Positions 1 through 5,179 of a DNA stretch of 64,000 bases are shown here, piece by piece. The DNA is taken from positions 186,001-250,000 of the forward strand of contig CP120463.1 in NCBI GenBank assembly GCA_034226945.1. Direction: 5' to 3'. How positions within the stretch are numbered: the stretch's first letter is position 1; each line of letters opens with the position of its first letter. Position numbers and translations under genes: made by a program. The notes under the pieces were generated by a model. That model had not been told where the DNA came from and ran no database searches. It saw nothing but the letters and a program-made list of their open reading frames with translations. This DNA is from Picochlorum sp. SENEW3. Its lineage: Eukaryota.

Positions 1-37
1 GTAAGCAGACATCTATCTGATTATACAAAAAAGACAA

Positions 38-117
38 GGCCGGTGAAGATATTCCATCCATAATTGAATCACCTGATCACGGGATGAATCTTTAACATGC
101 ACCACTATCTGATGGCT
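38..117 (+). ncRNA. Box C/D snoRNA, U33/snR55-like guide for 18S Um (yeast 1269 equivalent)
   Basis: Box C variant GTGAAGA (43-49), D' CTGA (73-76), C'-like GATGA (83-87), box D CTGA (109-112), short terminal stem GGCC/GGCT. Guide CATGCACCACTA pairs with conserved 18S UGGUGGUGCAUG; the D+5 rule points to the U equivalent to yeast Um1269. Confidence 0.75.
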
Positions 118-187
118 TTGTGCTAGTATTGCACGTTCGTTCATAACCTGTGGCTGAGTGCAGGCTCTTTTCAACGAATGAATATAT

Positions 188-432
188 TGCAAGGTAAGGG
201 CGCAGTGCGAAGGGCCACTTCGGCGTATCCTTAATTGTTATGATTAGGGTGAGAATGCTGGGTGAAAGTCCCCGGGCGACCAGGCAGAGAGTGCCATCCC
301 GAGAGGGAAAGACCCACTCCTGCCGATCACATGTGATCGGCGGTGTGGCAGTTCGCCATAGTTACAGTTATGTGGCCAGCAATATTATGCCATTGGTATA
401 ATATTGTGAACAGAACGGGGCTTATTCTTGCA
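188..432 (+). ncRNA. RNase MRP RNA
   Basis: P4 halves GAAAGTCCCC (264-273) and ACGGGGCTTA (415-424); P1 TGCAAG/CTTGCA (188-193/427-432); P2 GGCCAC/GTGGCC (213-218/372-377); P3-like hairpin 221-260; GAGAGTGCC followed by a TCCC-GAGA-GGGA hairpin with the GARAR motif; P19-like hairpin 380-406; T6 run at 448-453. Confidence 0.88.
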
Positions 433-552
433 CTGACGTCCCCCCTCTTTTTTATGTACAGGTTCCTGGGACCATGACATATCATGCAACAAATAAATGG
501 TGCGCTCTTTTGTAGTTTGTGTGCACGAGATGCTATTTTGGTAGGGACATTA

Positions 553-631
553 CGGTATGATGATAGAACATTACCACAGACCTGTTCTGAGATATGTAAT
601 GCTGAAATGGTTTCATGCACCACTCTGACCG
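553..631 (+). ncRNA. Dual-guide box C/D snoRNA for 18S Gm (yeast 1428 and 1271 equivalents)
   Basis: Box C ATGATGA (557-563); guide CACAGACCTGTT before D' CTGA (587-590) pairs with 18S AACAGGUCUGUG; C'-like ATGCTGA (599-605); guide CATGCACCAC before box D CTGA (625-628) pairs with 18S GUGGUGCAUG; terminal stem CGG/CCG. Confidence 0.88.
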
Positions 632-821
632 ATTCGAGTCCACAAATATCAACAGGTCTCTCGTAGTTTGACAGAGTTGATGCATTTTGTCATCATACAA
701 CATGCTACTGCAGATTGAATGAAGCAAGCGATAATAACAATAATTACTGTTATTCCCATATACTGTATTGATTATATATTTTTTACATTCACAACAAATA
801 GTTGTCTACTCTAATACATAG

Positions 822-1760
822 TTACTCTTCTTCAGCGACATCTCCAACGATTGGCTCAGCTGGTCTCTCAATCACTTCGCTAACCTCGGCGGAATAATCA
901 CCGTGTACTTCCATGAGCTTGTTGAGATCAAACTTTGGAGCTCTCAGGAGCTTCACCTTGCGGACAAAGACATTCTGAAGAGGATAAATTCCTTGGCAAG
1001 CCTTCTCAATTTCTTTACCAATAGCTTCTGGGATAAACTTTCCTACCAATTCCTTAAGATCACAAGAAGTGGCTTCTCTAGTCATGATTTCAACCATCTT
1101 GGCACGGATCTGACGGATCTGAGAACTGCGGGCATACGCAGTCTTCTTTACCTGACCCTGGCGCTTCTTTGTGAAGCCAATGCAGAACATGCGAAGATAA
1201 TAGTTATCGGTGGTCTTAACATCGACGTGAGCCTCGATCAAAGTCTGCCACTTGCGGACAAGAGAGCGGAGCTTGTCTGTGGTGAGGTCCATTCCATAGA
1301 AGTGAGTCAGGCAGTTGCGGCCCTGCACGTCTTCTACACGAAGCTTGACATTACGGTAGGCATCAGCCTCATTCTTCTGCAAATCTGCAAGGGATACATT
1401 GATGACTCTTCCCTTGAGCCCATCGGAGGCAATCTTAGTACCCTGAGTACGAGTCACCAAGGTCTTTCCGATGTTCTTCACGTTGAAGATTGTTGGTGCC
1501 TTAATATCATACCAATCCTTCTTAGCGAATGGATCCTGACTGCATACGTATTCAATAGAGTACAAGTCAGATGATGGTTCGAAAACGTCAATGGCGGATT
1601 CCGCCGACGCCCAGACTGGCGACAACGAATATCCCCCAAACTCCGATTTGGATCACACCAATCCATCGTTCATTGTTCAATCATTCTAAAAAGAAACGTA
1701 CGCCTTCTTCTTTCCTCCCTTCTTTCCCTTGGACAAACGTTTATTCTTTCCCACAGCCAT
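822..1760 (-). CDS. RPS3A: 40S ribosomal protein S3a (eS1), 2 exons (1702-1760, 822-1539)
   Basis: [19 protein letters not shown] start, spliced at GTACGT..TGCAG to [15 protein letters not shown]; 258 aa. Confidence 0.97.
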
Positions 1761-2454
1761 GGTGAATACGTCTACAATGAAACAAAATATGACCAGTCAG
1801 CCACTATACTACTCCAATATATCTCATAGGAGAGAAACCATGTCCTATTCATTGGGAAAAGAGCACACATTCGCGGGAGAGTGCGGCCGTCGACGTCCTC
1901 CCTCACTCCGTTCCCATCAACAGTACTCTTTGATGGTGCAAATCTGAGAGACGCCAGCCGTCACCGTCACTCTCTATTCCCCATACTGCTCGATATATGA
2001 CACGAAAGCCCGCAAAATTGATCCTCATGAATAGAAATATGTGATATATATCACTAGATCTAGCTTTCTTGCACTCATCACGCTGCCAGACGACAGAAGA
2101 ATTCGCCGCACATGAGAGTTGCTCAGTTCTGACTGATATCGCTGCCATTCGACTGGTTTCTCTCCTACTTTTCCATCAAAATGATTTCTTACCTGGTATC
2201 TATAATTATAGTAAAATGAGAAATTGAATACGGTAGCGCCGAGTAGCAGAGACGACGGCATGTACTCGAGGGCTCATGGGCAAACACCGCTGTGGTACCA
2301 AGTCCTATCATTGAGGTTCTTGGATGGGAAGGACACGTTCTTACTTCTTTGAGGAGCCACGAATCTGAACACAGGGAGTCTCATGCGGTGTGCATTGGTA
2401 TTTCATTTTCCATTCACTCATAGTATTCAGTACACATCCGTGGTGGGTAAAAGT

Positions 2455-2900: not shown

Positions 2901-5179
2901 TCAAGCTGTCAGGAGGTTTCCCTCTGGGCTCTTCTGCTTCTCAACGGCATCAATGTTGACTTGTGGAATTTGGGTGTACTTTTGGAGGATGTCTCTGAAC
3001 TCATCACCGCCCATTGTTTCCTTCTCCAGCAGCACTTCCACAATCTTGTCCACGGCTTCTCTGTTTTCCTGCATGTGTTTCAGGGCCACTTCGTAGGCAT
3101 CCTGGGCAATTTCTTTGACTGCTGCATCGATTCTACCCTGCAAAGACTCGGAGATGGAGTTGCGTGCCATCATTCTCATGATCATGTCCTGGCTCTGGGC
3201 TGATGGGTCTTGAAGGGAGAATGGACCAATTTCAGAGAATCCATAGTTGATAACCATGGCTCTAGCCATGTTTGTTACCTGTTGCAAGTCACTAGAGGCG
3301 CCTGTGGTTACCTCAGCATCTCCAAAGACAACCTCCTCTGCGGCTCGACCACCCAAGGCTCCCACAATTCGTGCGAAAATCTGTGCCTTAGAGATCAACG
3401 AAGGGTCCTCTCCTGGAAGGAACCATGTGAGACCACGAGCCTGTCCCCTTGGGATCAAGGTGACCTTCTGCACTGGGTCATGGCCGGGAGTCAATGAGGC
3501 ACACAAGGCATGCCCAACTTCGTGGTATGCCACCAGCATTTTTGATCTTCCATCAGTCATTCGTGTTCCCTCCATGCCAGCAACAATGCGATCAATTGAA
3601 TCATCAATTTCAGCCTGTGAAATAGATTCCTTGTTTCTGCGTCCAGCCAGAATTGCAGCCTCATTCATCAAGTTTGACAAGTCAGCTCCAGAAAAACCTG
3701 GTGTTCTCAGGGCAACCTCTTTCAAGTCCAAGTCATCACCCAATTTCTTATTTCTAGAGTGTACCTGGAGAATCGAGAGACGTCCACCCTGGTCTGGCAC
3801 ATCAACTGTCACTTGACGGTCAAATCTTCCTGGGCGGAGAAGGGCATTATCCAAGATATCAGCTCTGTTCGTGGCTGCAACCACGATAATACCAGTATTA
3901 CCTTCAAATCCATCCATCTCTGTCAAGAGCTGGTTCAATGTTTGCTCTCTTTCGTCGTTTCCTCCACCAACACCTGTACCACGAGATCTACCAACAGCAT
4001 CAATCTCATCGATAAAGACTATGCAAGGGGCATTCTCCTTGGCCTTTTTGAAAAGATCCCTCACACGGGATGCACCAACACCGACAAACATTTCGACGAA
4101 TTCGGATCCTGAAATTGAGAAGAATGGCACTCCTGCCTCTCCTGCAATAGCCTTGGCCAGAAGAGTCTTACCAGTACCTGGTGGGCCAACCAAGAGGCAT
4201 CCCTTTGGGATTTTGGCGCCAACGGCTGTGAAACGCTCTGGCTTCTTCAAGAATTCCACGATTTCCTGGAAATCCTGCTTTGCTTCATCAACTCCAGCGA
4301 CGTCTCCGAAAGTCACTCCAGTGTTTGGTTCCATCTGGAATCTGGCCTTGCTCTTTCCGAATGCCATGGGGTTCCCTGGACCACCTGGTCCCATTGGGCC
4401 TCCACCCCTCCTGGACAATAAGAAAAGACCTCCAACAAGAAGCAATGGGAACGCCAAGTTGCCAATCAGACTCAGGAAAATTGAGCCCCCATCCTCCTGC
4501 TGGGCATGGGCGGCGAAATCCACCTTCTTCTCTCTGAACTTCTGCAAAAGTTCACTGGATGTTCCAGGGAGCTGAACACGCACACGCTGTACTCTGTTTC
4601 CTAATTCTGGGGAAACAGCTTCAACAATGGCAATGGTTCCATTCTCATACAGATCAACCTTCTTCACCCGTCCCATATCCAAGTACTCCAGGAATCTGGA
4701 ATAGGACATTCTGGACGAGGCAACATTCGTCGCATCATCAGCCTTGGCGGCTCCAGCAAAAGTACTCAAAGCACTAGCTCCGGCAAGAAGACTGCAAAAA
4801 GTATCAATCACTTGTTATTAGTAGATCCTGAAAGGAACCCAAGATCACTTTGACGACGTACCTGGCAAGCTGGCGTCTTGAAGTCACCTGATCTTCGCCC
4901 TACACAACATAAACATAGCGTTAGCAATTGCAAATTGGATTCTGTCCATCTCCCATCCACACGTACCTCAATTTCTGCCCTGACGGCAACATTTCTGACC
5001 CTTCCATGGGCCATTCTGCAGAATGCAGGTCCTGCAAGATGTAAAATCAATCATAGTCAACAAAGTGGGTATAAACATGCCGTAGATTACCATGACGAGG
5101 TGAACAATGAGTATCACATCCTGTATCCTCCAACCCCACACAAGCAACGCATCACCTACTACATCACAAGTGATGCCAT
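2901..5179 (-). CDS. FTSH2: Thylakoid FtsH protease, type B (FtsH2/VAR2-like), multi-exon; exact start uncertain
   Basis: [13 protein letters not shown], Walker [14 protein letters not shown] zinc motif; small upstream exons give a transit peptide (VAVRA) and a twin-arginine SRRQL thylakoid signal. Confidence 0.93.

Follow-up and report, generated by a model that had tools for sequence, protein, structure and literature searches.

The RNase MRP RNA of Picochlorum sp. SENEW3 lies in an intron of a spliced transcript that also carries box C/D snoRNAs

At the start of a 64,000-nucleotide (nt) stretch of the Picochlorum sp. SENEW3 genome (GenBank assembly GCA_034226945.1, contig CP120463.1, positions 186,001 to 250,000 of the forward strand; the whole stretch is called the window below), the RNA of RNase MRP lies in an intron of its own within a spliced, polyadenylated transcript of the + strand that has snoRNA-bearing introns, i.e. 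introns with box C/D small nucleolar RNAs (snoRNAs). The host is probably a multi-snoRNA gene of the non-coding kind. [quoted passage not shown] For the locus described here, we consider it likely that the MRP RNA has no transcription unit of its own and sits in a spliceosomal intron of a polyadenylated, non-coding snoRNA host made by RNA polymerase II (Pol II). The gene family is an ordinary one, and its mode of expression is an unusual variant.

The MRP RNA was recognized by the Rfam model RF00030 on the + strand with an E value of 3e-28 and a score of 104.6 bits (gathering threshold 50), the match spanning the full model (positions 1-266 of 266), and it was the sole gathering-level Rfam match within the 64-kb window. 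Its P8 loop, GAGAG at 286-290, is held between GGCA and UGCC and fits the GARAR signature that the accessible text of PMC4287351 gives as a criterion for MRP RNA. Conserved region I (CR-I, GAAAGUCCCC) and conserved region V (CR-V, the GGGGCUUAUUCU region), which form P4, both align with the model consensus. A reading made earlier from the sequence alone had placed a full MRP fold at 188-432; the full RNA was recovered by Rfam, with ends that differ from the proposed ones by 6-12 nt.

For comparison, metagenome contigs were scanned with a pattern for MRP CR-I and P8, giving 72 loci, and relatives of the window locus were found by BLAST of window positions 1-2000 against them. Ten of the 72 share the order snoRNA 1, MRP RNA, snoRNA 2 and RPS3A, and they form four lineages: L006, L056, L009 and a group made up of L036, L037, L019, L039, L049, L042 and L007. 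Synteny in other chlorophytes had been named as a check in the sequence-only reading; the gene order is kept in these four related lineages. Across the five lineages (window included), the MRP RNAs are full length and score 93-106 bits, and CR-I, CR-V and the GARAR loop are invariant among the window and its relatives. A consensus fold of the GT..AG stretches of the five lineages has compensatory double changes in 19 of its 86 predicted pairs. These comparisons show the window RNA to be an RNase MRP RNA that is conserved and under structural constraint.

An alignment of the window with its relatives supplied a model of the host transcript, running from an intron at 1-163 through the exons and introns of Table 1 to a last exon from 714 onward, and this model was fixed before the RNA contigs were examined. 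Four public runs matching the locus were aligned to window positions 1-1200 at 90% likeness. Among them, X15 is an oligo-dT (poly(A)-selected) metatranscriptome and X9 a DNA run that covers the whole stretch; parts left uncovered (most of 1-260 in X16, most of 1-880 in X19 and 201-440 in X15) were not counted as evidence.

One X15 contig has a joint from 191 to 460 (cut +2) with 268 nt skipped and GT..AG ends, which is the exact removal of 194-461, so that both predicted ends were matched to the base. Two more X15 contigs end at 195 and continue as TCCTGGGACC, the letters of 464-473. The joint over 194-461 was absent from the DNA run X9, which covers the whole stretch. In another X15 contig, 9 foreign letters are joined immediately before 164; the upstream exon is thereby joined and the 3' splice site at 163|164 is seen in RNA. 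The 5' site of this first intron, at the window edge, is assigned by alignment with GTACGT in L006 and GTATGT in the L036 group. The intron around the MRP RNA is only 29 nt longer than the MRP RNA itself, and in the consensus fold P1 reaches G198-C441, so it starts 4 nt past the first base of the intron.

Further downstream, the exon end at 499|500 is placed by an aligned GT in 5/5 lineages (GTGCGC here; GTACGT, GTATGC and GTAGGT in relatives). A joint of 499 to 714 was not found in any of the four runs, and a single unbroken X15 contig (record 6), which covers 460-798, retains 500-713 with snoRNA 2 unspliced. The TGCAG at 709-713, pointed out earlier as acceptor-like, is present, and from the alignment it would serve as a splice site. 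A single intron common to these RNAs and closing there, as the sequence-only reading might suggest, is not what was found: the MRP RNA sits in a 268-nt intron of its own, and a separate one holds snoRNA 1. The broader proposal of that reading, an intronic MRP RNA co-transcribed with box C/D snoRNAs, was borne out by the GT..AG removal of 194-461, the exon joined at 163|164 and the order kept in relatives.

The spliced host exons contain stops in all three frames, hence the host looks non-coding. It has the features of a non-coding snoRNA host, i.e. snoRNAs in separate introns and poorly conserved exons without open reading frames (ORFs). Its 5' part falls outside the window, where relatives alone show it. 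One contig of the X16 run, at window 267-452, consists of a near-exact match to the MRP RNA followed by an unspliced, L056-like downstream flank, which points to another strain or species whose flank is mixed.

Table 1. Features at the MRP locus of the window (positions counted from the first letter of the window)
Feature	Position	Strand	Remark
Intron with snoRNA 1	1-163	+	5' GTAAGC 1-6 at window edge, 3' CAG 161-163
Box C/D snoRNA 1, SNORD33/Z195 kind	36-118	+	Rfam 36.4 bits against a gathering score of 44 (SNORD33), E 1.2e-4
Exon of host transcript, 30 nt	164-193	+	joined on both sides in X15 contigs; weakly conserved among relatives
Intron, 268 nt, GT..AG, holding the whole MRP RNA	194-461	+	X15 joint and 2 loose ends
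RNase MRP RNA	200-438	+	Rfam 104.6 bits; P1 extendable to 198-441
Candidate branch site CUGAC, 3' strand of P1	433-437	+	A436 25 nt before AG
CCCCCCUCUUUUUU	440-453	+	conserved C6 and T4-T7 in 5/5 lineages; T6 at 448-453
Exon, 38 nt	462-499	+	start by X15 joint; end by alignment
Putative intron with snoRNA 2	500-713	+	weak 5' GTGCGC, 3' TGCAG 709-713; GT..YAG in 5/5 lineages
Box C/D snoRNA 2	550-634	+	Rfam snR56 37 bits against a gathering score of 54; SNORD33 27.8 bits
Last exon and 3' end of host transcript	714-798	+	X15 contig stops at 798
Ribosomal protein S3a/eS1 (RPS3A), main exon, convergent	822-1625	-	Pfam Ribosomal_S3Ae, E 9e-80

The splice signals around the MRP RNA are conserved along with the RNA. 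Directly 5' of it, AG|GTAAGG was found in all five lineages (GTACGG in L009), and 3' of it CCCCCC, T4-T7 and then YAG follow in 5/5. The stretches between these signals and the adjacent snoRNAs, i.e. the presumed exons, are not conserved in the five lineages. Conserved splice signals bracketing the MRP RNA together with divergent flanks are read as one RNA per intron, the intron here being 194-461. Over the whole alignment, the MRP core and the snoRNA boxes and guides are invariant, and the spacers diverge.

Two box C/D snoRNAs flank the MRP RNA, in the same-strand order that had been noticed from the sequence alone, at a distance of 81 nt for snoRNA 1 and ~112 nt for snoRNA 2; candidates were drawn from a permissive Rfam scan of positions 1-1000. 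In snoRNA 1 we located box C (GUGAAGA, 43-49), box D' (CUGA, 73-76), box C' (GGAUGA, 82-87) and box D (CUGA, 109-112), a terminal stem of 39-42 with 113-116, and the D guide ACAUGCACCAC; its boxes and guide show no change in all 10 aligned sequences (the window and nine relative loci). In snoRNA 2, box C (AUGAUGA) lies at 557-563, D' at 587-590, C' (UGCUGA) at 600-605 and D at 625-628, with 553-555 and 629-631 as the terminal stem. It carries two guides, an snR56-like one at D' and a SNORD32/33-like one at D, and is invariant in relatives, save that the terminal stem has a compensatory change from G-C to U-A in the L036 group. Taken together, the snoRNA boxes and guides are invariant in every relative locus that reaches them (up to nine, from four further lineages), and spacers diverge. 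Both RNAs have the terminal stem and the internal C'/D' boxes of C/D snoRNAs. Both also fall short of the Rfam gathering score (Table 1), hence we label them C/D snoRNAs of the SNORD33 and snR56 kind, not members of those Rfam families. Their putative targets are the conserved 18S ribosomal RNA (rRNA) stretches GUGGUGCAUG and AACAGGUCUGUGG, to which the guides would be complementary. A CTGA at 17-20 had been proposed as the end of a further snoRNA cut by the window edge; we rejected it as a D box, as it stands directly past the 5' splice site GTAAGC and is kept neither in the closest relative, L006, nor in the X15 strain variant.

In the relatives the cluster extends upstream by at least 4 more C/D snoRNAs, among them matches to snoR66, snoR31/Z110 and snoZ159/U59 in Rfam. 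The snoZ159/U59 matches reach 52-80 bits (gathering score 39), and the R66 and R31 matches lie under their gathering scores. In relatives, some of the host's introns contain more than one snoRNA (two or three), a layout also seen in plants, and R31 and Z159 are separated by only 20-58 nt, with no space for an exon. Between the snoR66-like and snoR31-like RNAs of L006, L056 and L036 there are also a further C/D-like snoRNA with the guide CGCTGCGTTCTT, seen by eye only, and another conserved element, TTCTCCGTGCG...CGTCCC...GCTGACG. The guide CGCTGCGTTCTT presumably fits a conserved stretch of 5.8S rRNA. The upstream limit of the cluster in relatives is a divergently oriented protein gene, LYR-like in L056 (24.4 bits vs 24.8 for Pfam).

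We then looked at the MRP loci beyond this clade. The 72 loci fell into 35 clusters at 90% identity, and 29 representatives were scanned with Rfam, which gave no match in two of them (L071 and L061). The set used for counting comprised 32 loci, i.e. the Rfam-matched representatives, the four relatives and the window, with L023 and L058, which have no upstream sequence, left aside; controls were anchors shifted by 100-300 nt. Upstream of the Rfam 5' boundary, an AGGT with its GT no more than 10 nt away was found at 19 of the 32 MRP loci as against 14 of 290 controls, and a YAG|G within 60 nt downstream at 20 of 32 as against 86 of 310. Both signals were present at 17 of the 32 loci, which belong to clusters that are not phylogenetically independent and among which the window's own intron is the one with RNA support. 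The tally is conservative, because the Rfam 5' boundary is visibly misplaced in L030, L038 and L052, which were scored 'no'. A T4 within 25 nt downstream of the MRP RNA occurred at 11 of the 32 loci.

Seven clusters (L032, L016, L069, L003, L028, L050 and L066), called L032-type here, have the tightest layout: the intron would consist of GTG, the RNA and 8-11 nt, the outer end of P1 is formed by the GUG paired with CAC, and there is no T run. Other MRP loci hugged by splice-site-like signals are L031, L001, L027, L043, L017, L062 and L072. A snoRNA guide of the form ATGCACCAC...CTGA lies near the MRP RNA on the same strand at 10/32 loci and on the opposite strand at none. In a distant lineage, L046 has the same snoRNA linkage, with a short MRP RNA of 199 nt (3941-4139, +) followed by CCACACAG, an ATGATGA box and a CATGCACCAC guide. 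Intronic MRP RNA is probably widespread in green algae.

All 17 loci with both splice signals carry a branch-like motif before the AG, and each has one at 21-38 nt. In nine it is a CTGAC within the P1 3' strand, with the AG 11-38 nt away (21-38 in eight of them; the ninth, L031, has also CTTAC at 23), in seven it is the CTTAC or CTCAC of CR-V at 21-24 nt, and in one a CTGAC in the tail at 25 nt. In the window, the best candidate for a branch site from such motif comparison is CUGAC in the 3' strand of P1 (Table 1). Its A436 is bulged in the Rfam alignment, and the same motif and spacing recur at other intron-hugged MRP loci. The intron of RPS3A in the window, placed by reading-frame continuity, reads GTACGT...CTGAC...TGCAG, its A lying 27 nt ahead of the AG. 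A branch site inside P1 would make debranching an obligatory step.

Several points weigh against a purely intronic origin of the RNA. The RNA support comes from assembled contigs of a single run in one study. On its shorter side the joint has 22 letters, and it was aligned at 90%, within the range of the false-joint warning (below 95%, or a side shorter than 30). The contigs carry no mature-RNA ends, 5' chemistry or abundance, so that an origin from the intron rather than from a nested transcript is what we infer. Elsewhere in the genome there may be another MRP gene, driven by a promoter of its own. A run of T follows the MRP RNA in 5/5 lineages (T6 here, T4-T7 in relatives) and resembles a Pol III terminator. 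Finally, Ostreococcus tauri MRP RNA (Ot-MRP) is described in the available passages of PMC7671301 as intergenic, uncapped and probably made by Pol III because of its T stretch.

The last two points would fit a Pol III gene nested in the host intron, in which the MRP RNA is transcribed separately and ends at the T run and host splicing merely removes the region; we regard this as unlikely. The T6 at 448-453, for which the sequence-only reading had left an independent Pol III unit possible, is there, and the C6-T(4-7) tract directly 3' of the MRP RNA is conserved in 5/5 lineages. The tract CCCCCCUCUUUUUU could serve as a pyrimidine tract for the 3' splice site, as a Pol III terminator or as both, and its C440-441 pair with G198-199 in P1. 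MRP RNA is made by Pol III in animals, the insect gene retaining Pol III signals in all 26 species surveyed according to the portion of PMC4287351 available to us, and belongs to the type-3 promoter genes in plants according to that of PMC8287931. The T run is the only Pol III-like feature at the locus. As had been remarked of the window itself, the upstream region shows no promoter: an upstream sequence element (USE), TATA box, A box or B box was found in none of the five lineages within 150 nt upstream of the MRP RNA, the USE being scored against the core consensus of plants and the green-algal variants of PMC8287931. The sole partial match was an A-box-like one in the window alone, unconserved and with 1 mismatch. 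The 30-nt upstream exon is unconserved save for its splice site. A nested Pol III gene also fits poorly with the seven L032-type clusters, which have no T run and leave only 8-11 nt from the RNA to the AG, and an uncapped RNA such as that of O. tauri is expected equally from an intron product.

A plant-type polycistronic precursor is a poorer candidate, and we think it improbable. Here an snoRNA-MRP-snoRNA transcript would be cut by an endonuclease and trimmed, splicing being a side reaction of the leftover transcript. The X15 contig that keeps 500-713 with snoRNA 2 unspliced, the X16 contig that links the MRP RNA to an unspliced downstream flank and the lack of room for an exon between R31 and Z159 in relatives all agree with it, and O. 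tauri uses both intronic and polycistronic modes as far as the excerpts of PMC7671301 go. Against it speak splice sites that lie 4-6 nt from P1 and are conserved far outside the clade, the exact GT..AG junction present in RNA and the maintained distance from the branch-like motif to the AG. That the window holds a decaying or retro-inserted, non-functional copy with the working gene elsewhere, for which there would be room since a window view of one locus leaves the copy number in the genome uncounted, is very hard to reconcile with the full-length Rfam matches in five lineages, the 19 compensated pairs and the invariant CR-I, CR-V and GARAR loop, and we give it almost no weight.

Under the preferred reading of an MRP RNA cut from the intron of a Pol II-made snoRNA host, the excised lariat would be debranched, and 5'->3' and 3'->5' exonucleases would then trim it up to P1, held by Pop/Rpp proteins, taking ~4-6 nt off the 5' side and ~20 nt off the 3' side. 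This maturation from the excised intron is proposed by analogy with intronic snoRNAs and with the intronic RNase P RNA of insects, which, as the available sections of PMC6797745 describe, matures by splicing, debranching by Ldbr, Rat1/Xrn2 and the exosome, with Pop1, Rpp20 and Rpp25 protecting it. One promoter would then supply the RNA of the pre-rRNA endonuclease and several rRNA-methylation guides in fixed proportion. We extend this only tentatively, and with more doubt than confidence, to much of the green algae, where MRP RNA may have ceased to be the product of a Pol III gene: the spliceosome would define its ends, the intron would hardly exceed the RNA in length, debranching would be obligatory, the RNA would be linked to U32/U33 guides, and the branch A would lie within the RNA, either as the bulged residue in the 3' strand of P1 or, at loci with a 3' tail of only 8-11 nt, in the CUUAC of CR-V.

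The host resembles non-coding multi-snoRNA genes of the vertebrate GAS5/UHG type and the intronic clusters of green algae, which have short, weakly conserved exons without ORFs, a snoRNA per intron and a polyadenylated, spliced product. We know of no multi-snoRNA host gene with an MRP RNA in an intron. Mirtrons are alike in that a structured small RNA owes its ends to splicing, not to a dedicated nuclease or a polymerase start; at L032-type loci the intron would exceed the RNA by 3 nt and 8-11 nt at its two ends, and since RNA class and pathway differ the comparison is an analogy only. Canonical MRP genes (human RMRP and those of insects, plants and O. tauri) share with the window RNA the P1-P4 helices, CR-I/CR-V, the GARAR loop, a length of ~240 nt and a T run after the RNA. 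They differ from it in being stand-alone Pol III genes with a proximal sequence element (PSE) or USE and a TATA box, whereas the window RNA lacks promoter elements and lies in a spliced GT..AG intron.

Closer in expression mode is the RNase P RNA of insects and crustaceans, which the accessible part of PMC4287351 describes as intronic: there, too, a Pol II gene carries in one of its introns a catalytic RNA of the P/MRP type that lacks Pol III signals. That system differs in that the RNA is the sister RNA and the host a protein-coding gene (ATPsynC; the intron in the reporter has 701 nt, in the passages at hand), whereas here the RNA is MRP and the host looks non-coding. In our literature search, which covered subscription journals in part, we found neither a snoRNA host described as having an intronic MRP RNA nor an intronic MRP RNA from green algae. 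The sole precedent found for an intronic MRP RNA is one sentence in a red-alga preprint of 2025 (bioRxiv 10.1101/2025.12.01.691491), in the available passages of which 1 of the 23 stable intron-encoded RNAs of Cyanidioschyzon merolae is annotated as RNase MRP RNA, beside 11 C/D snoRNAs. That case belongs to the red-algal lineage and has different hosts; in these passages the MRP RNA is only mentioned, its treatment being left to a later article, and a link to a snoRNA host is not stated.

If our reading is right, a catalytic RNA would here have passed for the second time, and independently, from Pol III to a mode of Pol II expression that depends on splicing, and there would be a natural system in which an enzyme RNA and rRNA-modification guides stand under one promoter. 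On the wider and more doubtful reading for green algae, an old linkage to U32/U33-type guides for 18S rRNA would couple the supply of modification guides with that of the pre-rRNA endonuclease. The arrangement bears on the question of why compact genomes keep some introns. It is also a warning for annotation, since screens that require Pol III signals or an 'intergenic' position would mis-annotate such genes.

Some of the metagenomic loci have other arrangements. L070 (1288-1568, -) and L055 (101-381, +) are reversed, with a pyrimidine tract and AG at the 5' boundary of the RNA and GTATGT 7 nt past its 3' end, a layout in which the MRP RNA looks like an exon with an intron on either side. L068 (1372-1681, -) has a T-arm like that of a transfer RNA (tRNA), GGTTCGACTCC, within the 70 nt upstream of the MRP RNA and TTTT after it, and is a possible tRNA-MRP dicistron. 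In L030, L069, L051 and L045, one contig bears two or three MRP copies in tandem, 460-580 nt apart.

Next to the host, the 3' ends of two genes nearly abut: the host contig stops at 798, and the contig of the convergent RPS3A begins at 805, 17 nt past its stop codon. An X15 contig skips 189 nt within the RPS3A exon (window 977-1167) with AA..TT ends, which is probably due to another organism or an assembly artefact. The window also encodes PsbP, FtsH and a class-I aldolase as well as Pfam families of plant type, and the presequences of PsbP and the aldolase look like simple transit peptides. Together with the plant snoRNA families matched in the relatives, these features suggest a compact photosynthetic eukaryote of the green lineage; a protein comparison of RPS3A placed it no more narrowly than Eukaryota, with Streptophyta the most frequent group. 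At the end of the L006 contig (2546-2642) there is a near-perfect palindrome of 96 nt with weak matches to microRNA families, probably a contig-end assembly artefact.

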